A stretch of 62,951 nt of DNA, the filler included, from Chlamydiia bacterium (lineage in GTDB: Bacteria > Chlamydiota > Chlamydiia > Chlamydiales > FEN-1388): the NCBI GenBank assembly GCA_903848235.1. It is 5 parts of 5 records of this genome, joined end to end, with 100 filler letters (N's around TTAATTAATTAA, not from the genome) between each part and the next. Parts side by side here need not be neighbours in the genome. Positions count along the whole stretch, not along the records: positions 1 to 17,320 come from CAINFV010000094.1; 4 more parts are not named here. One strand, given 5' to 3'. Made by a program: the position numbers and the translations under genes. Under the pieces are notes generated by a model that was given only the letters and a program-made list of their open reading frames with translations, did no database searches and was not told the DNA's origin. Shown piece after piece: positions 1,797-21,642 of this stretch (position 1 is its first letter; each line of letters starts with the position of its first letter).

Positions 1797-1815
1797 TGAA
1801 TTGTCTCCGAGTCAA

Positions 1816-2763: not shown

Positions 2764-4700
2764 ACAGAAGGCGGCGACAGTGGTGAGCAGAGGCTCTTCT
2801 GCTCGCGTTCTTCTATGATGAGGGCGAGGAAGGCATCGATGTCCATCTGCCCGTGGACGACATTGTCACGGGTGCGTATGGAGATGTTCTTATCCTCTAT
2901 CTCTTTATCGCCTACGGTGAGTATGTAGTTATACTGCTCAAGCTGTGCCTCACGGACCTTTTTCCCGACGGATTCTGATGTCTCATCGACTTTGGTCTCA
3001 AAGCCGGCGTCGAAAAACTTTTTCTTCACTGCATGGGCATAGTCAAGATGGCGATCTGCGACGGGAAGGATGGCAATCTGCACAGGGCTGAGCCAGAGAG
3101 GGAACTTCCCAGCGTAGAACTCCACGAGGTTTCCTAAGAACCGTTCTAGGGACCCAAGCAGTGCCCTATGGGCCATGATCGGGCGTTTTTTTGTGCCATC
3201 GGGCGCTGTATATTCGAGCTCAAAACGTTGGGGCAGCGACATGTCAAGCTGCACAGTGCCGCACTGCCATGTCCTTCCTAATGCGTCAAACACGTGGATG
3301 TCGATCTTAGGGCCATAAAATGCCCCGTCGCCTTCGGCAATAGAAAATGGCTTGCCGGTAGCTTCAAGAGCCTTGCGCAGAGCATGGGTTGTCAACTCCC
3401 AGTCTTCATCGGTGCCAATGGTATTTTCTTTTGGCCGTGTTGAGAGGACGAGCTTATAGGAGAGGCCAAAGGTATTATAGATCTCATTGAGAAGGGTGAG
3501 GCATCCTAAGATCTCACTTTGGATATCTTCAGGGCGCATGAAGATATGAGCGTCATCTTGGTGGAAGCAGCGAACGCGGAAGAGTCCTGACAGGGAGCCG
3601 CTTGGCTCATAGCGGTGTACCATGCCAATCTCTGCTACGCGCATAGGAAGCTCTCGGTAGCTGTGCCCCTTTGAACGATACCAGAGCATGCCGCCAGGGC
3701 AGTTCATGGGCTTGATGGCAAACTCACGATCTTCAATGACGGAGAGGAACATATTCGCCCGATAGTTTTGCCAGTGGCCGGAGACTTCCCAGAGGGATTT
3801 TACCATCATTGATGGGGTCTTGATCTCTACATACCCTGCTCGTCTGTGGCATTGCCTCCAGTAGTCGATGATCCTATTCCAGATGATCATTCCTTTTGGA
3901 TGGAAGAATGGAATGCCAGGGGCTTCTTCGTGCAGAGAGAAGAGATCGAGCTTAGGTCCTAAAACCTTGTGATCGCGTTTTTTCGCCTCTTCTACTTTAT
4001 GAAGGTATTCTTGCAGTAGTTTTCTATCTGGAAAGGAGATGCCGTAGATCCGTGTTAACATATCCTTGGTGGAATCTCCGCGCCAGTAGGCACCTGAAGT
4101 CTTGAGAATTTTTATGGCTTTTATCTTGCCGACGTTCGGGAGGTGCGGCCCTCGGCAAAAGTCAAAGAACTCCCCTTGCTCGTAGCCTGTCAGCTTGCTT
4201 CCTGCTGTGGAAATCTCTTTGATAAGCTCAAGCTTATAGGGGTTGTCTTTAAAGCGTGCTACCATCTCATCTGGATTGTCGAAGACATGGCGCACAGGCT
4301 TGAAGTTTGACTGAATAATCTTTTGCATTTCCTCTTCAATCCGCTGGAAGTCCTCGTCGGAGATGGTGAGGTTTGCAAAGTCGTAGTAAAACCCTTCGTC
4401 GATAGCAGGGCCGATTGTAGGCTTTGCCTCTGGGAATAGTCGGAGGACGGCTTGTGCTAGAACGTGAGCGGATGAGTGCCAAAACACATCTTTGCCGGTC
4501 GGGTGGTCAAAGGAGATAAATTCAACGCAATCTCCTTCGTTCAGAGGAGTCTGTAGGTCAGAAGGGTTTTCGTTGATAACGCAATAGAGAGCTTCTGCAG
4601 GAGCTGTTAATTTCAGCGTTGCAGCAAGATCGGTACCTGTGGCATTTGGAGGAAGAGTGATGGGTTGTTTTCGAGCGTTTTGGATAAGATGGATTTGCAT
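2760..4700 (-). CDS. thrS: Threonine--tRNA ligase
   Basis: FWHSSAHVLAQAV, CRGPH, RDHKVLG, KPMNCP and HQDDAHIF motifs; probable ATG at 4700. Confidence 0.98.
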   Translation of the reverse strand: MQIHLIQNARKQPITLPPNATGTDLAATLKLTAPAEALYCVINENPSDLQTPLNEGDCVEFISFDHPTGKDVFWHSSAHVLAQAVLRLFPEAKPTIGPAIDEGFYYDFANLTISDEDFQRIEEEMQKIIQSNFKPVRHVFDNPDEMVARFKDNPYKLELIKEISTAGSKLTGYEQGEFFDFCRGPHLPNVGKIKAIKILKTSGAYWRGDSTKDMLTRIYGISFPDRKLLQEYLHKVEEAKKRDHKVLGPKLDLFSLHEEAPGIPFFHPKGMIIWNRIIDYWRQCHRRAGYVEIKTPSMMVKSLWEVSGHWQNYRANMFLSVIEDREFAIKPMNCPGGMLWYRSKGHSYRELPMRVAEIGMVHRYEPSGSLSGLFRVRCFHQDDAHIFMRPEDIQSEILGCLTLLNEIYNTFGLSYKLVLSTRPKENTIGTDEDWELTTHALRKALEATGKPFSIAEGDGAFYGPKIDIHVFDALGRTWQCGTVQLDMSLPQRFELEYTAPDGTKKRPIMAHRALLGSLERFLGNLVEFYAGKFPLWLSPVQIAILPVADRHLDYAHAVKKKFFDAGFETKVDETSESVGKKVREAQLEQYNYILTVGDKEIEDKNISIRTRDNVVHGQMDIDAFLALIIEEREQKSLCSPLSPPSV

Positions 4701-4782
4701 ATGATCCCCCAAAATTAATGACACGGTGGTTGCGCGTTAATACGAATTACGTACAGTGTAGCTAATAAAGAAGAAAAATACT

Positions 4783-7725
4783 ATGGCAGATGAGTCTTTG
4801 GGTATAGAAACAGAACGATCGATGTCTTTCGGGGCGGCGTATGTCCGTTCTGTGGAAAGCTGTCCCCCTCTTCGTCTTGGAAAGGACGAGCTGTTGGAAA
4901 AGGTTCTCTTTGATGAGGATGCTGCTGAGGCTTTTGATATCGATGTGAGCAACATTCAAGCAAGCTGTTCTGTGCTTGATGTGAGGCGGGCGCGAGAGTT
5001 GGCGATGCTTCTTGTCAACGATGCCGGCGACCTTCTTGTGCCTCGAGTTCGTCTTGCAAAGGAAATATTGGAAAGCCATCTGTTTGCCATTGCCTATGGT
5101 GCAGAAGAGAGGAGGCGGCGTGACGAGAGGTTCCTCAAAGCGCTGACCTTTCTCTGCGAGAGCGTTGAAGCACAGAGGCTTATCAAGAAGATGAGCCGCC
5201 CTCTGACAAACCGTCTTGCTGAAAATGCCATTCGTGACACGCTTCTTCTTCCTGAAAACCAACTTGTCAATGATGCTTCTGTACGGCGCGCTGCCGTTGC
5301 GGCCCTGCTGACGACCCTCCGCCAGAGTCTAGGCTCCTGTTTTGCCACGGCTCCTGCCATCGTCGTCCATGACGAGCAGCCGTTGTTATTCTTACGCGAC
5401 TTAGACGAGCTGATGGGGACGGCGAAGCTCAAGCGCACTGTTGCTGGTAATGAGTACAGTGTTCCTATGAGTGCTAGCTGGGGGCAGGGAGATCTGAAAA
5501 AGCCTGTTCCCATCACCTCTCCTCTGACGGCGTCAGCTCCTGTATGGCGATCAGCACCCTTGCTCCGCGTCCTTCAGGCGCTTGGCATTGTGCCGACGGT
5601 GGCGACTCATGAGAAGGGATATCAGGAGGTCTATTCACTGCTTTCTACCCTGCTGGAAGGATGCTTGACAGAAGGCGGGTGGATGCTCACAAATGTCGAG
5701 GAGATTCTCAAGCTTCTTCTCTTACGGCATCTGCAGCTGTCTGAAAAAGAGCTTCGTGATTTTGAAAGCCGTCCGAAAGCCATGCTGCAGACCGCGCTTG
5801 TGGTGGCAGCACCTGAGGCGAAGGGAGGCCGTGCTGCTGTCGACAAGCTGTTTGCTCGGTTTTTCTCGATGTGGGAGGACGGCAAGCGGATGTTCAAGGC
5901 GGAAGCTGACTGCGCCTTGTTAAAAAGCTGGGAGTTTACCATTGCCTCCTTTGCAGAGGTGAAGTTTGACCTTGCCCGGTGGAACTTCTATTCCAGCCTT
6001 GGGGTAAACTGGGATGATGTCGGCGGGATAGGGAATGTGTTATATGAAATTGCTAAGAAACGCGTTGACGAGACGAATCTTGAACTCGAACAGAACAAAG
6101 AGAAATACGATGCCATCTCCTTAGAGATTGACTATCTCGGTCGTCGTCTGCAGCAGGCATCGTCGGAGGGTGAAGCTCAATGGATGAAGATGGAATATCA
6201 ATCTCGCCAGGTGGAGCAGTATCATCTCAAAGAGCTCTGCGACATGGCGGCGGAGAAGGCGAACAAGGTCTCTCATATCCATCAGTTTCTGATCGATCAG
6301 TATGACGCGTTGATGAAAGAGTATTTCCAGGAGATCTATGATGCTGACCTGCATGACATTCAGGCGGGCCCTTTTGACGATGCTCCTGCTGGCTTCCGTC
6401 TGCTGTACAAACACGGGCGGTCGAACCCATCACTATGGACAAAGATCACCTCTTTAGATGAGTATGTAGAGGCGCTTGTCTCCTTTTTTACTATCACCGA
6501 GCAGGAGCTGCTGCACGCTCCTGAGGTGAAGGGGATAGAGGCGGAGTTTAGCTCTATCATTACTCGTCTTGCAAACCACGTTCGGTCCGACGAGTTTCTG
6601 GAGTCTGCCCTGACGAGGACAGCGGTAGCTCATGGTGTCAGGCCCATTGCCCATCCTCTTCAAAATCTCGAACATATTGAGAAAAAGCCATGGGTATACA
6701 CCTCTGGCGGCAGCATGAACACCCTTGTGTCATCGTACTTTTGTCTTGAGGGGCAGCCGGAGATCGTTGAGCGGTGGGTGGAAAATGAGACAGAGCTGCT
6801 TGCCTTTCTCATAGATACTACACGGCAGGCGAACTCTCGTGCTGGACGTGTACGGCCAACGTCGCTCCTCATGCACTCGCCGACGCATGCCTTTTCACTC
6901 ATTCCCATGGCGCCTTTTTTTGAAGAGAGCTGGATAGGAGATACCTATAGCTATTCCTGGATTACTAATCATGTGCGTGATCCAGGGCAGCTGTTTTATT
7001 CTACCTGTGTCTATGATCAGGCGGCTGTCGTTGAGTTTTGTTCTTTGCTTGCACAGAGCCTGCCGGTGGGCATCAGAACACGGTTTATCAATGAAGCGCC
7101 GACGATCCCAGGATTTTTGCGCCCTTATGAGCTGGCAAAAGAGATCGAGCGTCTGTTTTCATTAGATATTGTGCTGCGGCATCATCAGTCGACCTTACAG
7201 AATCTCTCTCTTGCCAGTATGCTCTTTGAATCATCTCCGTATACGTCTCCTGAGTCATTACGAGATGTCGTTACTGATGTGCTCGCGACTATCCTTCCGA
7301 AGGAGAGCCGGAAGAATGGAGCAGAACAGCTCATCCGCGCTGCTACGGCGTCCGTTCATAAGCCCCTTCGCTCCAAGGATCTTTTGTGTCTTCTGAAGAC
7401 ACTTGTGATACAGCTGACAAAGAGATATCGCTTTGACAAAGATCTGCTTTCTTCTCTTGTGAAAACCATGCGTGCTAAAAAGCTTCTTCCTCCGCGGCCG
7501 TTGATTATTGCGGATTCGAATTGGGTAAAGGATCTGTTTGCCTTTATGATCAGCCCTGTCTCACAGGAAATTGAGCTGTGGAGCGTCAATGCCTATGGCA
7601 CTGAAGGGGGGCCCATTCAAAATTGGAAGATGTGGCTTGACGGCAGTCGAAAAGATGGCAAATGGGGTGTCCTGATTAATCCAAATGAATATCGAGCCTT
7701 TGTTGGGTCAATGCAAAGACGATGA
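4783..7725 (+). CDS. Conserved chlamydial hypothetical protein (CT590-like)
   Basis: 980 aa; LRQSLGSCFATAPAI, LLKSWEFT, PAGFRLLYKHGRSNP and PWVYTSGG match my recollection of the C. trachomatis CT590 family. Confidence 0.75.
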   Translation: MADESLGIETERSMSFGAAYVRSVESCPPLRLGKDELLEKVLFDEDAAEAFDIDVSNIQASCSVLDVRRARELAMLLVNDAGDLLVPRVRLAKEILESHLFAIAYGAEERRRRDERFLKALTFLCESVEAQRLIKKMSRPLTNRLAENAIRDTLLLPENQLVNDASVRRAAVAALLTTLRQSLGSCFATAPAIVVHDEQPLLFLRDLDELMGTAKLKRTVAGNEYSVPMSASWGQGDLKKPVPITSPLTASAPVWRSAPLLRVLQALGIVPTVATHEKGYQEVYSLLSTLLEGCLTEGGWMLTNVEEILKLLLLRHLQLSEKELRDFESRPKAMLQTALVVAAPEAKGGRAAVDKLFARFFSMWEDGKRMFKAEADCALLKSWEFTIASFAEVKFDLARWNFYSSLGVNWDDVGGIGNVLYEIAKKRVDETNLELEQNKEKYDAISLEIDYLGRRLQQASSEGEAQWMKMEYQSRQVEQYHLKELCDMAAEKANKVSHIHQFLIDQYDALMKEYFQEIYDADLHDIQAGPFDDAPAGFRLLYKHGRSNPSLWTKITSLDEYVEALVSFFTITEQELLHAPEVKGIEAEFSSIITRLANHVRSDEFLESALTRTAVAHGVRPIAHPLQNLEHIEKKPWVYTSGGSMNTLVSSYFCLEGQPEIVERWVENETELLAFLIDTTRQANSRAGRVRPTSLLMHSPTHAFSLIPMAPFFEESWIGDTYSYSWITNHVRDPGQLFYSTCVYDQAAVVEFCSLLAQSLPVGIRTRFINEAPTIPGFLRPYELAKEIERLFSLDIVLRHHQSTLQNLSLASMLFESSPYTSPESLRDVVTDVLATILPKESRKNGAEQLIRAATASVHKPLRSKDLLCLLKTLVIQLTKRYRFDKDLLSSLVKTMRAKKLLPPRPLIIADSNWVKDLFAFMISPVSQEIELWSVNAYGTEGGPIQNWKMWLDGSRKDGKWGVLINPNEYRAFVGSMQRR

Positions 7726-7793
7726 AACATCTGAGCTCACCCAACTTGCGCATGTTATTCTTGCACAGTCCCTTATCCTTGCATACAAGTCCA

Positions 7794-8156
7794 GTACAAT
7801 ACGAATGAGCAATTCTCGACCTTTTGTATGATGTTCCGCATCAAGCAATTGCAACCGCTGACATACATCTAATATCCCTGTACACTCGGTAGCAGATCTT
7901 TTAGCCATGCGATAAAATCGGATCTTCTCTTCCACAGCATATGCACCAGCACCTTCAGCGATGTTCAATGGAATTGAGAGGGAAGCTCTATGCAGTTGAT
8001 CGCTCACGTAAGCTCGGTCTCTAGGCAAGTGCTCAACAATCCTGTCAGCTCCACGAATTCTATGGCAATTTGATAAACGGCTAATTTTTCGTGATCTAGG
8101 ATCAGTGTCTTTTCTTCTGTAGTCGTTTCGATTGTCTGTCCTCTAGACTACGTCAT
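7794..8156 (-). pseudogene. Four-helix-bundle protein (23S rRNA IVP family), disrupted
   Basis: DQLHRASLSIPLNIAEGAG...YRMAKRSATEC motif. The N-terminal LDHEKLAVYQIAIEFV is in another frame (frameshift about 8050). In-frame TAG follows ATG 8156, and the C-terminus diverges after RELLIRIV. Confidence 0.8.
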
Positions 8157-8198
8157 GAATTGACCATGCATTATATTAAAAGCCTCAACCAGAAGAAA

Positions 8199-8359
8199 GA
8201 GGCTTTTGTAAAACCGGCGACCGCGCTCTGCTCGCGGCGGCTCGATTATAAAATCGATCTCTCCTTGCCTATAGCTGCCGCTATGGGCCTCGTCGCGATC
8301 GATTTTCTACTCTTCGCCGGCGCTTCGCATATCGCGATCGCGAGTTTTGCAAAAGCCTC
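8199..8359. repeat. Palindromic MITE-like element, family A (full copy, 161 bp)
   Basis: Terminal inverted repeats GAGGCTTTTGTAAAAC / GTTTTGCAAAAGCCTC; the 3' half is near-identical to 19362-19408. Confidence 0.85.
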
Positions 8360-8697
8360 GAAAGATTAATTTTTGGGCAGCGGTACGGGCACGCACACGG
8401 GCACGATTTGGACTTGTGTGTAAGGATAAGGATTAGGGACAGTAGCATCTCGATTTTGTACACAGTCGAGCTAAGGTCCAGTAACACTGTGATTTGATAT
8501 CTGTTTGTTTTTTGAATACGGAGATGTAGGGCTAATAACCGTCTACATATCAATTCTTCATTTGTCCTTTCTCACGAGGTTGAGCAGCAATCTTACAGAG
8601 TAATTGCATTTACAAAAATGGAAGTGGCGTTTTATACAGGATGTTGAACTTTTCAACATGAGACTTATACGCTGAAACCATCCAAAGGGAGAGGACA

Positions 8698-10095
8698 ATG
8701 AAATTTTTGAGGTATTTGCTGCCTGTTGCCGTAGCAACATGCTGCATCGGAGTATCTCTTAGGGCTCAAGGGGACTATGAGTCTGGATATTCCACCGAGT
8801 CTGAAGCTCAAGAGCGGGACATGGAAGCTCTCCAGGAATACATTCGGACAAAAAGAGCCATCACTGTCAAAGAGAAGGGTGGCAACCTCATGATCAGCGG
8901 TGACATCCGCGGTGAATGGTATCACATGCATGCCAAGACAAACCATGTAGAGCAACGTGGATGGAAAAGTCGGAAGAACTTCCCAAACTCCTTCTACAAT
9001 GAAAAGACACCCCGTGCTTCTCATAAAGAGTATAAGAAGATGATTTACAAGGAGCGCGTAGCATATCGAGAAGGACGCGATAAAATACTCCCTCCTTTTG
9101 CGACCAATGAATTTGATGCTGAAGCAAACCTCGTCTTTGATTATGTCGCTGATCGTGGCTGGGGCACCATTCGTCTTCAGCTCTCAAATCCAGCAGGGAT
9201 TACTCCTCCAGAACGCAAGCCTATCGTAACTGATAGTGGTAGAATGATGTATGGCAGTGGAAAGCTCAACGACTTAGCTCTTCGCAAGTGCTATGCCGGC
9301 TATAATTTCTGGGAACAAGGCACCTCTCGATTTGACATGGAAGTCGGTCGTCGACGTCTGTACGATGTTTTTGATTCAAAGATTGAGTTCTGGTCATACT
9401 TCGACAGTGTCTTAGCACGCTTTACAAGCAGCTATGAAGGCATTACTGATCTTTCGTTGAAAGCTGCTGCTTTTGTTGTCGACTATACCGTCAATCACTA
9501 TGGGTATGTCGGTGAGCTTGGCTTGCTCAACCTGTGTGACACAGGCCTTGATCTCAAATACTCGTTGATCGACTGGAATACTCACCATCGTCCAAATCGA
9601 TTTGGAAGACACCATGCTATGGGAACTCAGTTCTGCAATTCGCAAATTCAGACGAGCTATACGTTGAGCCCAGATCTTGTCAGCCTGAAGACAACGCTGT
9701 ACGCCGCTTATCTCTATAACCACGCTGCACGCGCAACCAGCTGGACCAAGCACATTAAGGCCGCCGACGCTTGCTATGTTGGAGCTCGTCTTGGTGAGGC
9801 TATTCGCAAGGGCGACTACTCAGTAGAGTTGTTCTACCAATGGGTTAAAGCGCAAGCAGTGCCAGAATGGGATGTCTCATCATCAGGGCGTGACAACCCA
9901 CGTGGAATCTCCTTCTACAACCGTCGCAGTGGTGGTAGGGCAAACTTCCGCGGATGGAGACTTGAAGGGTTCTATGCTATGACCGATAACTGGACCCTCA
10001 ACGCTCATTTTGACCGCCTTCGTGAGATGGACCATCGCATTGGCGGCCCACACCGCTCAACAGAGTTCTACTTCGGCGCTATCTTCACGTTCTAA
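8698..10095 (+). CDS. Chlamydial beta-barrel outer membrane protein / putative porin (CT623-like)
   Basis: Signal peptide; DMEALQEYIRTKRAITVKEKGGNLMISGDIR motif; aromatic amphipathic strands; C-terminal Phe (GAIFTF); RBS GAGAGG. Confidence 0.8.
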   Translation: MKFLRYLLPVAVATCCIGVSLRAQGDYESGYSTESEAQERDMEALQEYIRTKRAITVKEKGGNLMISGDIRGEWYHMHAKTNHVEQRGWKSRKNFPNSFYNEKTPRASHKEYKKMIYKERVAYREGRDKILPPFATNEFDAEANLVFDYVADRGWGTIRLQLSNPAGITPPERKPIVTDSGRMMYGSGKLNDLALRKCYAGYNFWEQGTSRFDMEVGRRRLYDVFDSKIEFWSYFDSVLARFTSSYEGITDLSLKAAAFVVDYTVNHYGYVGELGLLNLCDTGLDLKYSLIDWNTHHRPNRFGRHHAMGTQFCNSQIQTSYTLSPDLVSLKTTLYAAYLYNHAARATSWTKHIKAADACYVGARLGEAIRKGDYSVELFYQWVKAQAVPEWDVSSSGRDNPRGISFYNRRSGGRANFRGWRLEGFYAMTDNWTLNAHFDRLREMDHRIGGPHRSTEFYFGAIFTF

Positions 10096-10130
10096 GCGAA
10101 GAGATCGCATAAAGTAGCTGGTTTGTTAAC

Positions 10131-10174
10131 AAAACCCCCGAGAAGGGCATAACGCCTCTTCTCGGGGTTTTTTT
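10131..10174 (+). terminator. Rho-independent terminator after the OMP gene
   Basis: AAAACCCCCGAGAAG...CTTCTCGGGGTTTTTTT hairpin with U-tract. Confidence 0.85.
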
Positions 10175-10198
10175 GTCTATATTGGATAGATGACGCAA

Positions 10199-10276
10199 GA
10201 AAAAGTCTGCAGATTTGATCGGCAAAAATAGACCCGCTACTAGAAGTAGGGGGTGTTTTTACCGACTCGAAGACGC
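10199..10276. repeat. Palindromic MITE-like element, family B (internal fragment)
   Basis: Near-identical to about 26658-26735 (GACCCGCTACTAGAAGTAGGGG...TTTTTACCGACTCGAAGA). Confidence 0.8.
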
Positions 10277-10483
10277 CCCCTATTACCCATAAGTGTTGAA
10301 AAATTCGTTTTGGAATGGTCGTGGAAGGCTCTTTGAAGACTGTTTGCATGGCAAATGTTCGAACAAAGAACCATCCTCAACGGAATTTTAGCAAAAAAAT
10401 TCTAGATTTTTTCTGAACCACAGAGATCACAGAGCACACAGAGACAAGAGAACTTCGGATGCGTAGGCGTTCCCCACCGCTCT

Positions 10484-12283
10484 TCACTCTCCAGACAATT
10501 CTGAGAGATGATGGGAAACTCCTTCTGCTGACAGCGGTTCGATTTGTGCTGATAAAGACAGCTTCCCTGTTTTAGCGCCGTTTTCGGAGGGCTCTGGGAT
10601 GGCGACGGTGAAGAAGGGGACGTCTTTCATCAGAGGCTCTTGTGTCCATGCGCTGATCAGAGGGTGGGCATAGTGGGAGAGGGTTCGTTTTGAGCAGAAG
10701 ATGGCGATAGAGATGCCGCGTTCTATGGCATGACGAATTTTCTCTGCCGACTCTCCGGTAGGGGCTATTTCGTGGATGTCATGGAGCTCGAGGATAGGAA
10801 TCATCCGGCGCATGATGTTGGCTGGAAAAGGTGGTGTTGTCTGCGGGGAGAGGGTGAACAGCCGCATCCGTCGTCGCTGTGAGCCGAGGAGGACGGCAGC
10901 CCATGGCCAGAACGACTGCGGGACGAGGAAAATCGATGGCTTATCGGCAGAGACCTGCTCTTTGCCCTTCAGATATGCTGGGAAGAAAAGGTAGCTTATG
11001 ACCAAAGAGCAAAATCGGATGACATACCCAGACATGGAGATAGAGATAGCTGTTGCCATGAGAAGGGTGACAATGCCAACGACGGTAAACCCCTGATCTG
11101 GGGTTAGGCCAACAATTTCGCTCAGCACATACATGGCCATCGCTGACGTCAGAACGCCGCAAAAGCCGAGGACATTTCCTGTAGCGACGATCTGCCCTCT
11201 ATGGGTTTTGGGGCTTGCCACTTGGATATAGGAATCTAGGGGGACGAGGTAGATGCCTCCGAATAGCCCGATGAGAAAGACGAGGAAGAGAACTGTCGTC
11301 AGAGAGTCGGAATAGTAGTCGAGGCAGATGCAGGAGATGGCCATGCCAATGCCTCCTAGGGGCACTAAGCCAAATTCAACAGCCTTTCCAGACAGATTTC
11401 CGGCGATGAGAGATCCCATCCCAATGCCGAATGCTGTAAGGAGGAACATATACCCTCCCTGGACGTCAGAGAGGTGAAGGGTCTTCATGGCAAAAGGAAT
11501 CATATTGAGCTGGACGTAGGAGCCGACGAAGAGAAAGAAGGCGGAGCCTAGGACGGCGGAGAGCAGTGAGGGCTCATTTCTGATGATGCCGATATTTTCA
11601 ATAATCTCGGTGAAAAGCCATGGGGTGACTTTTTTCTCTGACCCTGCTGGCGGTGTTTTTTGGATATAGAAGCTTGAGATAATGGAGATCAGGGAGAAGA
11701 TACAGCAGAAGATAAGGGCGATGATAAAATTTCTGTTGGTGATATCTGCGAGGAAAGATGCCAAAAATGTACCGACGATGATTGCGACGTAGGAAAACGA
11801 TGTGAGGATGCCATTGGCCTGTGAGATATCGTCTTTGGGGACGATTTCAGGGACGATACCGTATTTACAGGGGCCGAAGATCGCGCTGTGTGCCGCTAGG
11901 AGGAACAGAGCGGTAAATGACAGAAGCTGACTTTGCAGGGCGAAGGCAATCATCCCCAAGAAGAGAACGACGATCTCAGCGATCCTCGTAGCGACGATGA
12001 TTGACCGTTTGCTGTATCGATCGGCGAGGATGCCCGCGGTTGTTGACAAAAGGATGAAGGGCAAGACGTATACAGCGCCAGCAAGGGAGAGGATTCTGTT
12101 GCTGGATGCTGCGCCTTCGAGTTGGATGAAGCAAAAGGCAAGGAGGAGTTTGAAGGTGTTGTCATTCATCGCCCCGATGAACTGAGCGATGTTGAGGTAT
12201 CGAAATGAGGCCCATTCTCGTGTCGGCGGCGCACTTGTCGCGCTGCTGGTCCCTGTGTCTGGCGTGTTTGGATTCACAAACAT
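10484..12283 (-). CDS. LplT/Aas-type MFS lysophospholipid transporter fused to a degenerate acyltransferase-like domain
   Basis: QFIGAMNDN.FK, GILADRYSKR, SAIFGPCKYGIVPE and ANG motifs with about 12 TM helices; short C-terminal soluble domain. Confidence 0.85.
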   Translation of the reverse strand: MFVNPNTPDTGTSSATSAPPTREWASFRYLNIAQFIGAMNDNTFKLLLAFCFIQLEGAASSNRILSLAGAVYVLPFILLSTTAGILADRYSKRSIIVATRIAEIVVLFLGMIAFALQSQLLSFTALFLLAAHSAIFGPCKYGIVPEIVPKDDISQANGILTSFSYVAIIVGTFLASFLADITNRNFIIALIFCCIFSLISIISSFYIQKTPPAGSEKKVTPWLFTEIIENIGIIRNEPSLLSAVLGSAFFLFVGSYVQLNMIPFAMKTLHLSDVQGGYMFLLTAFGIGMGSLIAGNLSGKAVEFGLVPLGGIGMAISCICLDYYSDSLTTVLFLVFLIGLFGGIYLVPLDSYIQVASPKTHRGQIVATGNVLGFCGVLTSAMAMYVLSEIVGLTPDQGFTVVGIVTLLMATAISISMSGYVIRFCSLVISYLFFPAYLKGKEQVSADKPSIFLVPQSFWPWAAVLLGSQRRRMRLFTLSPQTTPPFPANIMRRMIPILELHDIHEIAPTGESAEKIRHAIERGISIAIFCSKRTLSHYAHPLISAWTQEPLMKDVPFFTVAIPEPSENGAKTGKLSLSAQIEPLSAEGVSHHLSELSGE

Positions 12284-12481
12284 GAGGCTCTGTCCGGCGT
12301 TGATTTTCTGTTAAAGTCCAGTGGAAAAGAATAAGCTGAATCGTTTTGAGTTATTTTTTTTCAGTTCCTACTGTATTCCTTGCCACAAGATCTGTTTACC
12401 GTTCACCCCTCTTTAAGGTAAACGCGTATTTTGAGCCAATGGTGGGCGCGAAAACCCAAGAAGAACACCACCATTTCTGTA

Positions 12482-12645
12482 TATACCTCTTCTTGTTCGA
12501 GAATCGGATTTCACACTTAGAAAAAGCTTCGGGATTCGATCGATCAAAAAGGGACCCATATTGCAATATTGGCCCCTTTTTGATCGTCGAATCGCGAGAG
12601 CTTTTTCTTAAGCGTCAAACCGATTCGTGAACAAGAAAAGGTATA
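12482..12645. repeat. Palindromic MITE-like element, family B (full copy, 164 bp)
   Basis: TATACCTCTTCTTGTTC...GAACAAGAAAAGGTATA terminal inverted repeats; imperfect palindrome along its whole length. Confidence 0.85.
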
Positions 12646-12788
12646 GTTCCATTCGTGCCGAGAATATGTCGAAATTCGGTGTTAAGCGCAATCTTGACGT
12701 TGAGAACTTTTTCTCAATATGTGTAATTGTCGGATAACCCAAGAAGGAGTATATAAAAATTTAGATTTTTCATCTGCGAGGTAGCCCT

Positions 12789-15700
12789 ATGTCTTTATCA
12801 GACTTGTCCCCTGTCAACGTCGATCCAGCTACTGTGAATAGACTATGGGACGACTTTGGGGGGAAAAAAATTCCAACAAGAATAGATGCAGGCGTGCAGG
12901 GTATCTTTGGCAGGATCGCCGAAGAGTGCAGGATTGTCATTTACAAGGGAGATTTGTCTAATTTCGACAATGTCCGAGTTCGTGCGAAAAAAGACGGGTG
13001 GATAACTTGGTTTTTGGATCGGGTGCTTGGGCGTAAACCTGAAGAAGCGAAAGAAGGGCAGATCAAACAAATCTTTGATGGCGTGTCAGTGGCACTAAAC
13101 AAAGCTGATATGGAAAGGAAGGGTTTGCCTTCAGCTTCCGCAATAAAACCGACAAAACAACAAACGGAGATTTCAGAGAGGATTACGAAGCTTGAGCATC
13201 TCAAAATAATTCTAGAAACGAAGTTTGGTTATCTGAAGGAGGAAGCTAAAGAAGAAGCTCCTAAGCCACCTACGCTACTAAGGGAGCCGGTACCTGAACA
13301 CCTGGATGAAAAAAAGAAGCAAGAAGGAAAAGAAGCAGTAGATACTTCTGGGCCCTCCCTGCTACCAGGGGGGGAGGCACCTCCAATCCCTCTGGGGGCA
13401 GCGCCTCTCCCCCCGGGGATCGTTCGAGAAGAAGAAAGGGCTACTATACTACCTCCACCAGGTTTCGCGGCTCCTCTACCCCCTAGGGAAGAGCTAGATC
13501 GAGTTGCGGAAGCTCTTGGGACGCCACCACCCCCTGGTGGGCTTGAGCTTGCAACCTCTGTGGTGGTGGATTCTTCCCTTGCCGTGAACGTTGAGGAAGG
13601 AGGTAAACCACCGCCGCCACCACCGCCGCCACCGCCACCGCCGCTACCGCATGGCGGGCGCTTAGCTGGGAGCGGTGTTTCTGTGGTAGATTCAAAGGGG
13701 GAGGCAGTTCCTAAAGCTAAACCTCAACAATCGCCCGAAAAATTAGCTTTTATTACTGAAATTGAACTAGGAGTCAAAAAGAGGCAAGCTGCGCGGGCTG
13801 TTGCTGAAGGCGTAGGAGAAGCTCGGGGAACTGTTGCAGAAGAAAAATATAGAGAGGGCATCAAGGAGATCATTAAGAAGGGGACACTACCTGAGAACAT
13901 CAGGGCACTTGGACTTATGAGATCGATGCATATATTCGGACAAAAAAAGAAAGAAATTAAAATTAGTAAGGATTCATTAGATACGATAGTTGACGATCAA
14001 GAGACGAGAGGGATTTTTTGTTCAATATTTGGCCTGACAGATGCCCAATATATGATTGCAGCTAAGTTGGCATATTCTGTAGATACAGAAAAACTAATGA
14101 ATATTTTCGATGATTACATGAAGTCTGAAGTCGATGATATAAGAGCGGCACAAAAACTGAAGAAATTTGAATTTTTTCTTAAAATTCTCACAGTGGGCTG
14201 TTCCGCAGAAATGCAGGAATTAGATGGGGAAATCGCCAGTAGTGAAAAAGCGAAAAAGTATCTCGACAGAGTTTTAAGTTTCATTACTTCCATTCCCTCC
14301 CATGATATCCCAGATGACCTTGAACTTCCCGCTGCGCTTAGCGGAGAACAGGTCTCCACCTTACAAAGAGATGGGCTCCCTCGTGCTTATCAAGAATCTG
14401 TGGCCTCTCTTAAGGCGAAGCTTGTGACTTCAGAAGATATAGATGGCTTTTTCTCAGATTTGTCAGCTTATCTGGCGAAAGCGAAAGAGTCAGAACTGTG
14501 GAAATTGAAGATCAGTCAAGAGTCACAATCTCCAGATCTTCAATTATTCTATGAAAATAAAATTTATGGATTTAGAGCTGATTTTAAGTCCAAGGCCATC
14601 GAAAAAAGTGCGTTGCTGGCCGAAATGGACGAATTTATAAAACAAGCTAAATTACAAATTGAGATAGGGGAAAATTATAGAACTCTTAAGAAACGAGAAG
14701 GGATAGATGGAAAAACATTCGCGCCTCTTTTAGAATTAATTGATGGAGCTGATGAGATAATCAAAGGAGGGACAACTGCCATTGGGCCTCTAGGGATCTT
14801 AATATCTAATTTGGCACAATCCTTAGCATTTGCAAAAAAAATTCCTGTATATCTCCATTTTCTTATCCCTTCCAAAGTCTCGCGTGAAAATATTAAAGAA
14901 TACCTTGCAGTGTTAAAGGCATTAGTTACGGATCAAAGGTTGAGCACTCTCAGTCAATGCTTGAAGAAAAATGCAGAAGGAATTTCTGCCCATAAGAAAG
15001 CGCAAGCATTTGCTCTCGCAGCAAAAGAGAGTAAAGAAGGTTCTGATAAAGAGCTTGGAGTAAACTATCGTGCCTGTATTGCCGCCATTAGTTCTCTTGA
15101 AACAGCAGGGTGCTTTGGTCCGCTTGTGTTCCATCTACAGCGATTGCAAGGAAAAGCGGAAAGCGGGGAATTGTCTTGGCCCGTTTTTGCGGGTGCTGTC
15201 CGGAGTGCTTTTGAGGCAGTTGACGTAGCACTGGCAGTATCTGGAAAATTAGCATCCGGAGGCGACGCAGCGGCTATGTACAGGAAGAAGACACAACTTC
15301 AAGCTGTAAAATCATTTATTGATCTTCAAAACTACAAAACGTTGCTTGATGGGCTCAAAGATGACGTGGGGACCAAAAACATTAACGAAAAAATTAAAGA
15401 ATTTGAGGGCGCTGAATTAGCAATTAAAAGAGATTCAGATGAGGTATCGATGCTTCTTGTTAGTAAAGGCCATGTTGTTGAAGAGAAATGGGTGTATGAC
15501 AAGGGTATGCGTAGTCGGAAAGAACTGAGAGTTTTTTTCCAGGAATATGATGCGCTTTTGCAGTCGATACAAATAGATAAAACGGCTTTTTCACCATTGT
15601 TGACAGCGATTAAACAATTCAACGAGCAGCTCCAGAAAGGAAATCTTACGTATGCTGAGGTGGCAGAACGTGTTTCAAAGTATACTCGGGCGATAGAAAT

Positions 15701-17320
15701 TGCTAAAAAGGTGGATGAAAAATTATTCGTTGCGCTACCAAAAGAATTTGTGGATATCGACACATATATCTCGACTTTAGAAGCATTAAACGATGCGTCT
15801 GAAGCGTTTGTAAAAGTTGGCGCTCAAATTGAACAAATGCAGCGCGAAATTAAAAGAAGGGCGACTAGTGCAACATTAAGAGCCCCAGGCTCCCCTTCGA
15901 GCAATAGAGGTGAGCTGTTGAAAGAAATCGTTGAACCCAAAGTGGTGTTAAGGAAAACGCAAAAGGTAGAAGGGGGGAGGGGGGTGTCCTCGGCAACTCC
16001 TCTAGTGACACTGCAGCTCGCTCTTCAAAATCGATTGAAGACGGTTGTCATCCTCAAAGATAAAAATGTTGGCACGCCAGAGGAAGAGCCGTGGGGTGAT
16101 GAGACAGAGGCGACACCAGCGCAGAAGGTTAAAGAGGCTCGAACTGAGATCGAGACAGCTGCAGAATCACTCAACGCTTTTGAAGAACATGTGGCAGCTG
16201 CTTCAAGGACAGTCGCGGCTTTGAATGCCCAGGCCGACGCATTGGGTGCAGTAATACTCAAAGATGAGCCTCTGGATGTCCAGATAGCGACAGCTGCAGC
16301 AGCACGAGTAGATGAGAAATGCGAAGAGATCCTCACTGAGGCAAAGAAAGCGAAAGCTGACGCGCTACGCATTAAGGTCGAAATCGATAAACAACTACAA
16401 ATCGCACGAGCTGCTGTTGAGAAAGCTGAGTCGTCGTTAGCGCATATAGAGAAGTCAGATGAAGAAGCCACCAAAGCAGCAGTAGAATTATTGAAGGCAG
16501 CTGCTCAAAAAGCAATAGAAAGTGCAGGACAACTTTTGCAACGGCTGGCTTTGGTAGAAACTACAGCAGACGACACGAACCTAAAGGTTGCTGCGGCACT
16601 TAAAAAGTATTCCGGTCTTAAAGAACAAGCAATTGTAGTGGAAAAGGAAAAGGCTGCTGAAGAGCTGAAAAGAAAAGAGGGCGAAAAAGCCGAGAAAGAA
16701 CGAATAGAATCCGTACGGGTGGCAGTAGCTGCAGCAACCGCAAAAGTCTCGAGCGTGCAAAAGGCGTTTGACCTTCGCCGTGAAAGCTCGATACTGGCTA
16801 CGAGTGGTGCTGACGGGCGGATGGAGGAGATCGCACGGACCCGGCAATCGGTCGATGATTTTCTTAGGGAGTCAGCCCAATCTCTCGATGTTGATAAAGA
16901 GGCGCAAGCGTTGTTAGGAAATCTAACGCAAGTGAGGCAGAAATCAGGAGAAGTTCTCGAAGCCTTGAAGCGGGAAATCTCCGGAGTTCGAGTCCTTGAA
17001 GCTGAAGTTGCTGAAGCATTGAAAATCACTGAAGCCGCGGTTTTGGCTGGGCAGGCGGCGAAAGAGGCTGGCAATGATGCGGCAAAAATACGCTCCCTGG
17101 TGGATGCACTCCAGAAAGGAGTAAGCGAGATATCAAAGAGTCTGGAAGCGAAGATTGCATCAATAAACGATCTAACAATATTCGATCAACTGACGGCGCA
17201 GGTGGTCGAAAGAAAAGAAGCTGTTGCGCAAAAAAGAAAACTGGCCGAAGAAGCGGAACGAGAAAAAGCAGCGGCAGCGGCAGCGGAGGAGGTGCTTAGG
17301 GCGCAACAAGCAAAGGAAGC
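12789..17320 (+). CDS. Large putative secreted effector with polyproline tract, WH2-C-A (WCA)-like module and long coiled coil; 3' truncated by contig end
   Basis: 12-Pro run; RGELLKEIVEPKVVLRKT; PLVTLQLALQNRLKTV; EEEPWGDE; Ala/Glu/Lys-rich C-terminus; RBS GAGGT. Confidence 0.8.
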
Positions 17321-17420
17321 NNNNNNNNNNNNNNNNNNNNNNNNNNNNNNNNNNNNNNNNNNNNTTAATTAATTAANNNNNNNNNNNNNNNNNNNNNNNN
17401 NNNNNNNNNNNNNNNNNNNN
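17321..17420. other. Artificial contig linker
   Basis: N-run/TTAATTAATTAA/N-run, giving stops in all six frames. Confidence 0.99.
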
Positions 17421-19197
17421 ATCACGTTCTATCGTTCTCATGGGTTGTTTTTCAAAGTAATCACGCATGACGGCCCATTCTAAATCGAAATTCGTGCTGA
17501 AGATAATCTGTCCGGCAAAATTAACTCTACTCGTTACATCAGCGCAAAGATGTGAGGTGAAAATGCCATAAGTCGAAAAAAAGGTTTGATATTTCTCTTC
17601 GTCTCTCATCGAAAGATATCTAGAAGAAGATACAATATCGACAGCCTGCCCCAACACAGCATGGTAGAAGGCCAGCATTGCAATAATCGTCGATTTCCCC
17701 TCCCCAGTTTTAACCTGTGCAATTCGCCCTCTCACTTCCGCCGAAGGGTGCAATAGACCAAGTACTGCAATTACCTGGGTGTTGTACGGATAAATCCCGA
17801 ACTCTTTTCGAATAGCCTCTCTAGCTATGGCAAGCAATAAAGCACTCTCAGAGGAAGAAAGAGGCCGTTTTCGTGCCAGAGCCTGAATGTGCTCAACTTT
17901 CGAAATAAGCTCATCTATTCTCAAAAACCGCAACTCCTGGCCACAGGCATACACTTGGGGATAGTCGTGAAAGACAGAGCCAATCTGTGCTTTCGTCAGT
18001 GGGTCCATCTGCATTGCAATGTCATCCAGCTCCTTCTCTGGACTTTGCATATCACTCATTTCAACCTTAATTTTTTCCAAAAAAACTTCAAGTTGAACGA
18101 TCGAAATACGAGCGCAGAAGAGTCTTTGCAGTAACTCGTCTATCTTTCCACCCATCCCAGCAACAATTTTGATCTGGTGAAACACCCTGTAGAGGGCTGT
18201 ATAGCTATGCACATGTTGATAACTTACTGGGTTTAAGAGCAGAAGGAAATCACCCCTTCCCAGTAGTCCCTTAAGAACCCTTAGCTCATCAACAACATCC
18301 TTCTTTGTTTTTTTCTCTGCCGCATCTCTTCTCCATTCTATTGCAGTAAAAATTCCATCAATTCTGAAGCGTTCAAGATCATCCAACCCGTCATCTGAAA
18401 AACACTTTTTTTCAAATAAATCTACAGCCCTCTCTTCAGCCCTATGGAGAACTGCCTGCAACTTTTCGACAGCTGCCCTAACAGTTAAGGACCCCTCATA
18501 AAATCCCGTGGCAATACCAATAACCTCCGCGTCGATTTTCTTTACAGCATTCAGCTGAGAGAAAAGCTGCAACATGAGCATTACGTCTTCAAAAGATTCA
18601 CCTTCTAGGGCATAGCATGAAGGCTGAGAGATCAGTAAAAAGAAAAAAAGCCCTATCATGTCTTTGACTTTAGCAAGCACAAACAAAAACGACTCGATAT
18701 CGAGCTGAGTCGCAACAGGCGCATCACGACCAAAAAGCCGATCGCAGATCTGAATGACCCGAGAAACATGTACAGGGTCAATAGCATAGATCGAAATTTT
18801 TTCTAGAACACATTTTTCTGTCGACAGCCTTTCTGGTGCTAAGAAAGGGAGTAATTCAAAGAAAAGACCTACTGCACATCCGGCCCCACGAAAAAACTGC
18901 TGTGTCCCAAACTTCATGTATTTGGCGGTTGTCAACTCACTATTTTCTCCAACAACGGCCGGTGACAGGGTGATAGGCTGTTGTTTTAATGTTTTCAAAG
19001 CAGCTATTGATGTAGATCTCGCCTGATTACGGGGTTTAGTGCTTTTGATATATGCCTCAAGCCACTCCTTCCCACCTTCGTCAAAGTAGGGGACATCATC
19101 TACTGAGGTTGGAAGCGTTCCTTTATCCCGTACCTTCTGAAAAGACAAAAAAAGACTTACTAATTCGGAAAACTCTTCTCGGCTATAGTACGCAGGA
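17421..19197 (-). CDS. SecA-DEAD-like helicase-domain protein (non-canonical SecA-like), fragment open at both contig ends
   Basis: PYNTQVIAVLGLL, IAQVKTGEGKS (Walker A) and VDIVSSSRYLSMRD after about 430 aa of unrelated sequence; the frame stays open up to the contig edge. Confidence 0.8.
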
Positions 19198-19297
19198 NNN
19201 NNNNNNNNNNNNNNNNNNNNNNNNNNNNNNNNNNNNNNNNNTTAATTAATTAANNNNNNNNNNNNNNNNNNNNNNNNNNNNNNNNNNNNNNNNNNNN
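19198..19297. other. Artificial contig linker
   Basis: N-run/TTAATTAATTAA/N-run. Confidence 0.99.
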
Positions 19298-19408: not shown

Positions 19409-19573
19409 TGGACTTTAGCATTTTTGTGGCTTTAACGGGCCCGAGCTCCCTTTTTCAAAAGAGCTGCGCCGGTCATTTCTCTCTTGACATTCTATTGAAT
19501 ACTGCATAGCCTCTGCCCAGGGATCTTCCCGTCTGCCCTCATGCGAGGGCGGGAGAATGATGAGACTAACTGT

Positions 19574-20392
19574 ATGTCCATAGTCCATGCTTTTATACCT
19601 GTCCTTATCCCAGCCATTGAGATCTTTGCTATCGCTTTTGTTCTCTATCACCTACTGTCGTTCTTTTGGAATACACGGGCTATGGATCTCGCTGCTGGGA
19701 CACTAGTCTTTTTAGTCTTTTTTTCCCTTGCAAACTGGCTGAACTTCCCTGTGCTTCAGACCATCATGAGGTACTTCGTCAACGCTGCTGTCATCGGGCT
19801 CCTTATCATCTTCCAGCCTGAACTTCGAGTGGCTCTGTCGAAGTTGAGCATGAAAGGAAAGAAATACGAGAAGCTTACAGAATTTGATAAGTTCCTCGAT
19901 GGCCTGTGCAACTCTGTCTATCGAATGTCAGAGAGACGTATTGGCGCTATCATCATCCTCGAAAATCAAGACTCTCTAGATGAATATGCAGCAAAAGCTG
20001 TTCTTCTGAATGCGCATTTTTCTTCGGAATTGGTCGAATCGATCTTCATGAATTCATCGCCGCTCCATGACGGCGCAGTTATTGTCCGAGGCACGACAGT
20101 GTTAGCTGCAGCCGTTATCTTACCTCTGGCGGATGATACCTCTCAGATCACGCGTTCTATGGGAACGCGCCATCGTGCAGGGCTTGGAATTACACAGCAT
20201 TCAGATGCGTTGAGCATTGTTGTGTCGGAAGAGACCGGGAAGGTCTCTATTGCACGTGAGGGGATTATGACACGTGGGGTCCGTGCTGATCGATTTAAAG
20301 GAGTGCTGCGAAGTCTCTTTACCCCGCAGGAAGAGAGCTCAACAGTTCGGTCGAGATTGCAAAAGTGGTTAGGGGCATGGAGACATTCTTAA
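19574..20392 (+). CDS. dacA: Diadenylate cyclase DacA/CdaA
   Basis: Three N-terminal TM helices; IIFQPELR, SPLHDGAV, GTRHRAGLG and VVSEETG motifs. Confidence 0.96.
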   Translation: MSIVHAFIPVLIPAIEIFAIAFVLYHLLSFFWNTRAMDLAAGTLVFLVFFSLANWLNFPVLQTIMRYFVNAAVIGLLIIFQPELRVALSKLSMKGKKYEKLTEFDKFLDGLCNSVYRMSERRIGAIIILENQDSLDEYAAKAVLLNAHFSSELVESIFMNSSPLHDGAVIVRGTTVLAAAVILPLADDTSQITRSMGTRHRAGLGITQHSDALSIVVSEETGKVSIAREGIMTRGVRADRFKGVLRSLFTPQEESSTVRSRLQKWLGAWRHS

Positions 20393-21642
20393 AAAACATA
20401 TTCGTTCAGAATTGGCAGAGGAAGCTGATCTCTGTCCTTGCTGCTATTGTCATCTGGACTATTGTGAGTTCCTCGATTACCTCTACCCGTGTGTTCACAC
20501 GCATCCCTGTGCGTATCGTCAACCTTCCTGCCAACAAAACGATCCATGGCCTGATGCCTGATGGTTTTCTCGATAAACGGATTACTGTGACGCTGACAGG
20601 GGCAAAGGATGTGATCGAGCGATTGGGGCCACAGGACTTTGAAGTGGTCATCGACGCCTCTGACAATGGCAATGAATGGGTTGCCAAGATCACCAAGAAC
20701 AATCTCCTCTGCTTCAACCCTGATATCCACCTTGTCCATGCAGTGCGGCAGCTCAGCCATTCTGAGCTTGTGATACGGTTGTGTCCACTTGTTACACAAA
20801 AGATACCGATCTTTGTTCGTCTGCCAAAGGGAGAGGCTCCCGAAGGCTATCAGTTTCTCGATGTGTGGCCGCAAAAACTCTACCATCTCATCTCTGGCCC
20901 TGAAGAGGATGTCAAACAGCTTCAGGAAGAAGGGCTTGAGCTGACCTTTGATCTTTCTTTGATTACTCCAGAACAGCTGGATGCTCTAAAAGGGGAGGGC
21001 CCTGGAGAGGATGAGGTGAGCTTTTTTATCCCAGAAGCATGGAAAAAGGTGCGCATTCCTTTTCTCCACGATGCTATCCAGCCTATCAATGGTCAAGAGG
21101 CTCGGCAACTGAGAATAGACTTTCTTCATAAAACTGAACTTCCCGTCGACGGGTCGATTCCTCTCAAGATCTTTTACCCCATTGCACTGCTCAAAACCCT
21201 CAATCCATCGACGCTGGTCCTAAAGCCCAATGAACTTGTCAAAAAGGATTTTGGCGTCTCCTATATCGATCAGCGGCTGTATGTCAATGCTGTCAGTCGT
21301 CTCTTCCTCGATATTGTGCGTGATCGATTAGAAATAGTGGTTGTCCCTGTGCCGAAAGACTCAGGGATTTCCTTTCTCTGGGATGTCCAATTCATCGATC
21401 CACATCAGCTCGAAGAGGCGTATGTGACGATTGCTCTTTCCAGTGAATTTGAGGGGGACTCACATCTAGGAAGTGCTAAAGCTGTTCGACAGCATCTGAT
21501 AGAGCGTGAAAAATATCTGCGCGCTCGCTTTCAGGAGTATGTGCGATCTTTTCAGCTATACAGGGCTAAAGATATTCCTCTTGCCTTGAATATCTCCCTC
21601 GACAGTGATGGGAACATCGTCGTCGAAGAGCCTTCTTTATGA
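20377..21642 (+). CDS. ybbR: YbbR/CdaR-like regulator of diadenylate cyclase
   Basis: NWQRKLISVLAAIVIW membrane anchor; overlaps dacA as in the chlamydial dacA-ybbR operon. Confidence 0.85.
   Translation: METFLKNIFVQNWQRKLISVLAAIVIWTIVSSSITSTRVFTRIPVRIVNLPANKTIHGLMPDGFLDKRITVTLTGAKDVIERLGPQDFEVVIDASDNGNEWVAKITKNNLLCFNPDIHLVHAVRQLSHSELVIRLCPLVTQKIPIFVRLPKGEAPEGYQFLDVWPQKLYHLISGPEEDVKQLQEEGLELTFDLSLITPEQLDALKGEGPGEDEVSFFIPEAWKKVRIPFLHDAIQPINGQEARQLRIDFLHKTELPVDGSIPLKIFYPIALLKTLNPSTLVLKPNELVKKDFGVSYIDQRLYVNAVSRLFLDIVRDRLEIVVVPVPKDSGISFLWDVQFIDPHQLEEAYVTIALSSEFEGDSHLGSAKAVRQHLIEREKYLRARFQEYVRSFQLYRAKDIPLALNISLDSDGNIVVEEPSL

Follow-up and report, generated by a model that had tools for sequence, protein, structure and literature searches.

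The window (the whole stretch of 62,951 nucleotides that was analysed) holds, from position 12789 to 17320, the 5′ part of a giant gene. Its product combines a proline-rich region, a WH2-like motif, an Arg-containing amphipathic helix and an acidic segment with a tryptophan, followed by a long coiled coil. The stretch joins several contigs end to end (C94, C95, C96 and further ones), and the gene order across their joints is not real. Positions 1–17320 correspond to contig C94 of a genome labelled here G000, whose assembly comprises 284 contigs and 2.35 Mb (completeness 93.15, contamination 4.85). Translation of 12789–17372 yielded a single open frame of 1510 real codons with no stop before 17320, where the frame ends because the contig does. 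The features of this part of the gene are listed below; the designations P0002 to P0006 refer to the related proteins described in the next section.

12789–17320 (+): 5′ part of the giant gene, 1510 codons, by translation; cut by the end of contig C94
12789–13253 (+): conserved N-terminal domain, about residues 1–155, from alignments A1, A2 and A4; the sole module common to all members
13374–13649 (+): Pro-rich region with PLPPG, LPPPGF, PLPPRE, PPPPGG and a final P12-LP; 21.8% Pro over residues 161–330
13608–13649 (+): poly-Pro PPPPPPPPPPPPLP (P12-LP), residues 274–287, by translation
13737–13787 (+): putative helix and basic patch EKLAFITEIELGVKKRQ, about 30 residues past the poly-Pro, from alignment columns 601–630
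13791–15890 (+): central all-helical domain of about 700 residues, ending in FVDIDTY..LEAL (15747–15788); common to P0002 and P0003 only
15906–15959 (+): WH2-like motif RGELLKEIVEPKVVLRKT, residues 1040–1057, an amphipathic LLKEI helix, a 6-residue linker and LRKT, by translation and regular expression (regex)
15999–16055 (+): C-like amphipathic helix PLVTLQLALQNRLKTVVIL, residues 1071–1089, with Arg1082 (LQLALQNRLKTV), by translation and a low-confidence model
16077–16109 (+): acidic motif PEEEPWGDETE with Trp1102, residues 1097–1107, by translation and Trp-context score
16119–17320 (+): first Ala/Glu/Lys coiled-coil unit, residues 1111–1510, by composition and periodicity

The poly-Pro, the WH2-like and C-like strings and PEEEPWGDETE, all quoted in an earlier note on this DNA, are present in the order and at the spacing given there. 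Class I nucleation-promoting factors (NPFs) are described in passages of PMC7274804 as having a WH2 motif (W), a C helix and an acidic segment with a conserved Trp (A), in that order, and the same W-C-A order is found in the giant protein at the motif level. The layout of WH2, labelled as a helix and LKKV in a figure legend of PMC9569871, is present as a string only: LLKEI, 6 residues and LRKT, the regex match lying at residue 1043. A 13-residue Gly/Ser linker separates W from C, and a 7-residue loop separates C from the acidic Trp. Alternatively, the C-like helix could represent a degenerate copy of WH2, with LKTV as its basic motif. In a low-confidence AlphaFold2 (AF2) model, a helix at residues 1039–1048 is followed by a loop, a helix at 1071–1091, another loop and a long helix. 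The family alignment places all three in an indel-rich linker outside the conserved helical domain. The segment beyond the acidic motif is the long Ala/Glu/Lys coiled coil that had been proposed (A 21%, E 13.5%, K 10%), with a 3.5-residue hydrophobic periodicity of z = 6.1 relative to 200 shuffles.

The remaining modules lie upstream. An AF2 model of the N-terminal domain, built from six sequences, has an alpha/beta fold (predicted local distance difference test score, pLDDT, 65). Foldseek gave no match to it in the PDB at E ≤ 0.001, and a wide VIA-align comparison reached a best Z of 6.1 with generic helical hairpins only; the actin-binding hairpin of a Legionella effector, listed there at Z 5.1, was discounted as one of these. 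The window protein has no Sec signal and no transmembrane (TM) segment, the highest 19-residue hydropathy being 1.5–1.7. Residues P277–P284 of the poly-Pro are invariant in alignment A1. In P0002 and P0003, similar helix/KR-rich stretches align with the patch EKLAFITEIELGVKKRQ, possibly a second motif of actin-binding type. For the central domain, a single-sequence AF2 model of residues 321–1170 had a pLDDT of 38 and was used for its secondary structure alone; the ESM Atlas returned no usable match to this domain. The G+C content drops to 0.41 at 14001–16000, within the coding region of the central domain; the flanks have 0.47–0.50, and other parts of the window reach 0.54.

Extent of the gene, its relatives and the recurrence of the motifs

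The earlier note had called for recovery of the missing 3′ end, which was largely located by synteny on another contig of G000, C152, although no contig of the sequencing runs bridges the gap. In G001, a genome of the same genus, the order is RecC-like gene, Ser/Thr kinase and a 1916-residue gene (P0006), followed by a divergently transcribed transporter of the major facilitator superfamily (MFS), a 1000-residue open reading frame (ORF) and a 467-residue ORF. In G000, the RecC-like and kinase genes are found on C152 directly after a 1302-residue frame, and the MFS gene and the orthologue of the 467-residue ORF are found on C94 directly before the window ORF. Therefore, C94 and C152 carry the two ends of one gene. 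The last 39 residues of the window ORF have 84% identity to the start of the 1302-residue frame, which runs inward from the contig end. The features that define this arrangement are as follows.

10484–12283 (−): MFS transporter, divergent, the synteny anchor; 84–86% identical in two relatives with an adjacent orthologous giant gene
17321–17420 (no strand): artificial, non-biological contig joint N44-TTAATTAATTAA-N44, read directly from the sequence
C152 of G000, 18879 down to about 14972 (−): 3′ part of the giant gene, 1302 codons, by synteny; outside the window

The C152 part contains two coiled-coil repeats of about 530 residues, 40% identical to each other, and a tail of about 190 residues. 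Residues from about 1100 to 1510 of the window protein form a third copy, 24–25% identical to the other two, and it is because of these repeats that the assembly broke at the end of C94. The whole protein has at least about 2,770 residues in its two parts, and further repeat units may be missing. Six DNA sequencing runs from three studies of freshwater-sediment and sediment metagenomes carry the stretch, in short contigs with a depth of 2–5, and no RNA run is listed as carrying it; a loose end at 17287 in these contigs resembles a C152-type repeat junction.

Neither Pfam nor NCBIfam has a family for the giant protein, and NCBIfam has none for the five family members scanned. A HMMER search over 1,835,955,588 representative proteins gave three homologues, all of them singleton "hypothetical" or unnamed metagenome proteins, and two more sequences were identified on genomic and metagenomic contigs.

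P0002: 1509 residues, E = 4e-59, HMMER homologue
P0003: 2268 residues, E = 2e-50, HMMER homologue
P0004: 601 residues, N-terminus only, HMMER homologue
P0005: on metagenome contig L008, cut by the contig end; the same gene as the near-identical P0004, with an adjacent MFS gene 86% identical to that of the window
P0006: 1916 residues, G001, the syntenic orthologue, without the central domain

The family profile matched two of the 23 genomes of the taxonomic family, G000 and G001. A profile of the N-terminal domain matched three of 401 genomes of the order, namely the same two and one weak case (E = 4.7e-4, with an in-frame stop), and the central domain alone matched one of the 400 genomes scored, G000 itself. 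A search for related loci over genome contigs returned pattern matches and no relative. The members are mosaics: P0002 and P0005 have a common insert, P0003 and P0006 have a common C-terminal domain, and long Ala/Glu/Lys coils are found in the window protein, P0003 and P0006. The ordered domains of the family are only 26–31% identical, and the N-termini of syntenic orthologues 22–42%, next to an MFS neighbour conserved at 84–86%. A stand-alone second copy of the N-terminal domain was also found on contig C1 of G001 (L016:1204–1797, −; 198 residues; E = 5.8e-14 to the domain profile); neither this ORF nor the 362-residue ORF upstream of it has a Pfam family.

Elements of the W-C-A stretch recur in these relatives. 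The sole strict match to the WH2 regex in P0003, LLSAVRSGKSLRKT (residue 1197), aligns with the WH2-like site of the window protein, and the sole strict acidic-Trp match in P0002, EEDDWGETD (residue 1289), aligns with the acidic Trp; both fall in the same linker as the window motifs. P0002 has in addition a DPW at residue 1251, 38 residues upstream of EEDDWGETD. In P0006, a helix of the hydrophobic-Arg-Arg type leads into EDEDAWD at about residues 365–388, elsewhere than the window site. Thus, W is present in P0003, A in P0002 and P0006, and a C-like helix also in P0006, counting four full-length members with the window protein. A poly-Pro of 7–12 residues is present in four of five members (the window protein, P0002, P0003 and P0005), P0006 having PPPP only. 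In P0005, GRGALLEDIRRRG stands directly after P11, a WH2-type helix without a basic tail, and the Pfam WH2 model gave a below-threshold score of 10.1 bits (E = 0.73) on the near-identical P0004. An LC3-interacting region (LIR), the autophagy reading of the acidic Trp, was rejected, as a hydrophobic residue at +3 is missing from every copy. Recurrence in homologues is a stronger argument than the frequency of the strings.

Frequencies were assessed in a pseudo-proteome of the same genome (1821 ORFs, 687,240 residues). Only the giant ORF has a WH2 regex match with an acidic Trp 20–90 residues beyond it, in a single instance; 0.067 such cases are expected per shuffled proteome, and two of 30 shuffled proteomes had at least one. 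The acidic-Trp regex gave 18 matches, with 15 in shuffles. Of the 8194 Trp in G000, 27 (0.33%) lie in a context of net acidity ≥ 5, Trp1102 being one of these; the best score of P0002, 8, exceeds all 8194, and that of P0006, 6, is attained by six of the 8194. In composition-preserving shuffles, the observed maximum was reached in 4 of 5000 for P0002, 148 for P0006 and 259 for the window protein, so that three members are enriched in acidic Trp and one, P0003, is not. In a variant contig seen in two runs, W1102 is retained and K1092, N1093, G1103 and D1104 are replaced by acidic residues; the eight changes listed for this contig hit seven codons and are all non-synonymous, which is weak evidence because the depth is about 2.

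Genome and neighbouring genes

The genome encodes four NTT/TLC nucleotide transporters and the histone-like Hc1. It also encodes a type III secretion system (T3SS), whose export gate SctV (755 bits) adjoins a gatekeeper of the CopN/HrpJ type on C151. It is reasonable to read this set as what a chlamydia-like bacterium with an obligate intracellular life would be expected to carry, in agreement with the chlamydial origin given in the earlier note. The giant protein, lacking both Sec signal and TM segment, stands in a genome with a T3SS, and no small chaperone gene is evident beside its gene. A reading as a T3SS translocator was rejected: an SseC match in P0002 is sub-threshold (E = 0.029, 14.4 bits versus a cut-off of 30.2), and no TM segment is present in the window protein or the C152 tail.

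Directly downstream of the 3′ end of the giant gene lies a Ser/Thr kinase of about 516 residues (G000 C152:13416–14915; L012:3610–5160; Pkinase E = 2.7e-18). It is 47% identical between two species of the genus, versus 84% for the MFS transporter. Like the giant protein, the kinase may evolve fast, and it is possibly secreted. An orphan ORF of 1000–1072 residues lies beside the MFS gene at L012:13074–16076 (+) and L008:4608–7826 (−), with copies 35% identical and no counterpart at that position in G000; the L008 copy gave sub-threshold Pfam matches of coiled-coil type (YscO-like, FH2, FliJ, SNARE). In appearance, this locus is a variable island that encodes large orphan proteins.

Elsewhere on C94, the ORFs at 135–1796 (−, 553 residues), 4783–7725 (+, 980 residues) and 8698–10095 (+, 465 residues) have no Pfam or NCBIfam family, and the 465-residue ORF shares 80% identity with the orthologue in G001. 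Further N44-TTAATTAATTAA-N44 joints are found at 19198–19297, 50747–50846 and 52420–52519. The SecA fragment at 17421–19148 lies on its own contig of 1777 nucleotides and exemplifies a false neighbourhood across a joint. At 19541–21642 (+), a cyclic di-AMP synthase gene (DAC/CdaA) followed by a YbbR-like gene forms an ordinary cdaA–cdaR pair.

Interpretation and competing explanations

We regard it as plausible, if somewhat short of an even chance, that the giant protein represents a new, unrelated family of secreted class I NPF mimics that target Arp2/3 and actin. The analysis shows the anatomy of the protein, a partial conservation of its motifs, the synteny, the fast divergence and a T3SS in the genome; that the protein is secreted, binds actin, binds and activates Arp2/3 and oligomerises is inferred. 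Type III secretion would carry it into a host cell, which is most likely a protist, and the conserved N-terminal domain would act in secretion, chaperone binding or localisation. The Pro-rich tract would recruit profilin–actin and/or SH3 proteins, the LLKEI...LRKT motif would bind an actin monomer, and the Arg-containing amphipathic helix together with the acidic Trp would bind Arp2/3, leading to the nucleation of branched actin at the site of the protein. The long coiled coil would dimerise or scaffold the molecule; multimeric WCA modules are more potent. The effector-like traits of the family, namely the missing signal peptide and TM segment, the fast divergence, the mosaic modules and the T3SS in the genome, speak in favour of such a mimic. 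Tentatively, one genus-level environmental chlamydial lineage could have evolved or assembled its own NPF, a eukaryote-like Pro-rich/WH2/C/acidic-Trp cassette set within a scaffold of coiled coil that exceeds 2,700 residues, with an entry role like that of TarP and with motifs gained, lost and moved between orthologues at such a rate that the combinations differ from one neighbouring species to the next; this is a possibility that we judge somewhat less likely than not.

A number of results weigh against an NPF mimic. The Pfam WH2 model PF02205 (gathering score 23.1 bits), a check proposed in the earlier note, did not match the whole protein, a 95-residue segment or the 22-residue motif at E ≤ 10, nor any of the 27 candidates scored in the six-frame genome at that threshold, nor P0003 as a whole. 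A phmmer search against 177,635 distinct PDB sequences gave no match at E ≤ 10 for 15876–16130 or 15990–16110, and only unrelated chains when the query was the CA-like stretch of P0006 or the segment that follows the poly-Pro of P0005. In the ESM Atlas, residues 1030–1112 ranked a WHAMM-like cluster (81% PF02205) second, at 0.78, which is a lead only, as shuffled proteins attain this range a third of the time. Since no profile or PDB match was found, membership of the WH2 Pfam family or of the WASP family is not claimed, and the resemblance proposed is a functional one at the level of short linear motifs. The W-C-A-like stretch is internal, as the earlier note had stressed, with 403 residues after it in the window and 1302 on C152, whereas the WCA regions of NPFs are described as C-terminal in passages of PMC7274804.

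The motifs themselves add to these objections. The WH2-type regex has 55 matches in the pseudo-proteome and 53 ± 8 in shuffles, and the WH2-like string alone is no evidence because its frequency is at chance level. The acidic Trp of the window protein is marginal (p about 0.05), and in P0003, where the best Trp context is 1, 4849 of 5000 shuffles attain the observed maximum. Both regexes were written after the sequence had been seen, and are therefore post hoc; the homologues are not independent samples. The strict WH2 regex has no match in P0002 or P0006, P0003 has Phe in the Trp position (DPFESE), and W, C and A occur together in no homologue, with only four full-length members known. The Arp2/3-activator mimic of the earlier note keeps its W-C-A order, its spacing and its poly-Pro, but is without a match to a WH2 profile or a PDB chain.

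The same observations fit an alternative that we judge somewhat unlikely, in which the motifs are chance strings in a disordered linker and have no role on host actin, the giant coiled-coil protein being structural or unrelated in some other way, for instance a bacterial scaffold or a surface-associated protein. The chance frequency of WH2-like strings, the failure of every profile or sequence test for WH2/WCA membership, a motif content that differs in every homologue and the borderline acidic Trp of the window protein all agree with it, and a Glu-rich composition favours acidic contexts. Against it, the acidic-Trp contexts of P0002 and P0006 remain extreme after shuffles that preserve composition, the sole strict matches of P0002 and P0003 fall in one and the same linker, and the poly-Pro is kept in four of the five members. 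The very fast divergence next to conserved neighbours, moreover, is typical of host-interaction proteins.

Another explanation keeps actin or Arp2/3 as the target and gives up class I activation: the protein would be an Arp2/3 binder, inhibitor or tether acting through its acidic Trp alone, as in Arpin, cortactin and the CA region of Coro7, or an Arp2/3-independent nucleator whose single WH2-like motifs are clustered by the coil, as in TarP and Vibrio VopL. We consider this unlikely, although the acidic Trp is the most recurrent element (three of the four full-length members, versus two with a WH2-like motif) and the CA-like stretches of P0006 and P0002 come without a strict WH2 match. Acidic-Trp regions are described also for Arp2/3 inhibitors and co-factors (PMC8810855, PMC10613254 and PMC12592476), nucleation by TarP is attributed to WH2-type motifs and oligomerisation in parts of PMC9569871, and the long periodic coiled coil fits oligomerisation. 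The window protein, however, has the full W-C-A order, including a correctly placed Arg-containing amphipathic helix.

Finally, it is improbable that the acidic aromatic motif is a ligand of some other host machine, serving vesicle traffic or organelle positioning instead of actin: the shared column is indeed an aromatic residue with acidic or Pro flanks, not strictly Trp (EPW in the window protein, DPW at residue 1251 and DDW in P0002, DPF in P0003), as in the DP[FW] class of the AP-2 appendage and the W-acidic class of kinesin-1 light chain, but none of the copies has the hydrophobic residue that kinesin W-acidic motifs are expected to carry two positions before the Trp, the WH2-like and C-like helices nearby as well as the poly-Pro would go unexplained, and the ESM features point weakly to WH2 proteins.

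Comparison with known systems

Taken as a candidate NPF mimic, the giant protein resembles WASP/N-WASP, WAVE, WHAMM and JMY in its Pro-rich tract, its WH2-type helix with L[KR]K[TV], its Arg-containing amphipathic helix and its acidic Trp (as these proteins are described in passages of PMC7274804). It differs from them in having no detectable sequence homology, an internal WCA-like stretch with about 1,700 residues of coiled coil after it, a 700-residue helical domain between the Pro-rich tract and W, an N-terminal domain unrelated to known folds and, in the assembled allele, a Gly after the Trp. The architecture, an internal W-C-A-like stretch combined with the helical domain and the coil, is new. 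No literature on WH2 or WCA in environmental chlamydiae (including Parachlamydia, Protochlamydia, Waddlia, Simkania and Neochlamydia) was found by full-text search. Significance is limited because the evidence is at motif level only and the organism is uncultured; the family nonetheless offers a natural series of short linear motif turnover between close relatives.

Among bacterial proteins, RickA of the obligate intracellular Rickettsia has a Pro-rich centre followed by WH2 and CA elements and activates host Arp2/3, according to parts of PMC11077975. It is likewise a bacterial protein of an intracellular organism with Pro-rich and WH2/CA elements. RickA, however, is a far smaller protein that carries its WCA at the C-terminus, and it belongs to another phylum, with presumably another secretion route; no homology to it was seen, all three homologues found being unnamed and the RickA sequence not having been aligned directly. 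Listeria ActA and Burkholderia thailandensis BimA are NPF mimics whose Arp2/3-activating elements are not C-terminal, because the C-terminus anchors the protein, and they provide a precedent for placing a WCA-like module internally or near the N-terminus. Both are anchored at the surface of cytosolic bacteria and produce comet tails, whereas the giant protein has no anchor, autotransporter or TM segment and its organism presumably resides in an inclusion. ActA, RickA and BimA represent three earlier bacterial lineages of Arp2/3 mimicry, and the giant protein, if read correctly, would add a fourth independent one, unusual in that the module sits internally on a giant coiled coil. The WH2 motifs of BimA are labelled in a figure legend of PMC9569871.

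The Legionella effectors RavH, VipA and MavH have WH2-like helices that were identified from AlphaFold2 models and conservation, as parts of PMC13481308 describe with no mention of Pfam, and come from amoeba-associated bacteria. They act independently of Arp2/3 and depend on membrane phosphatidylinositol 3-phosphate (PI3P), have no acidic Trp and are delivered by type IV secretion. TarP, secreted by the T3SS of Chlamydia, combines a Pro-rich domain with one or more WH2-like actin-binding motifs and remodels actin at entry (PMC9569871, PMC2904776 and PMC5792643). Direct nucleation of actin by TarP relies on its oligomerisation, and no CA element is reported for it; the giant protein has a C-like helix, an acidic Trp and a giant coiled coil in addition. 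That it is unlike TarP, as the earlier note had held, agrees with the absence of similarity to any named family in Pfam or NCBIfam, the TarP sequence itself not having been compared directly. In environmental chlamydiae, TarP is reported absent and entry requires actin polymerisation, and parts of PMC4314085 call for "other unknown bacterial effectors". As an effector with WCA-type motifs, the giant protein would offer a concrete, testable candidate for actin-dependent entry without TarP and, if it is an NPF mimic, would be the first Arp2/3 activator reported for the phylum Chlamydiota.

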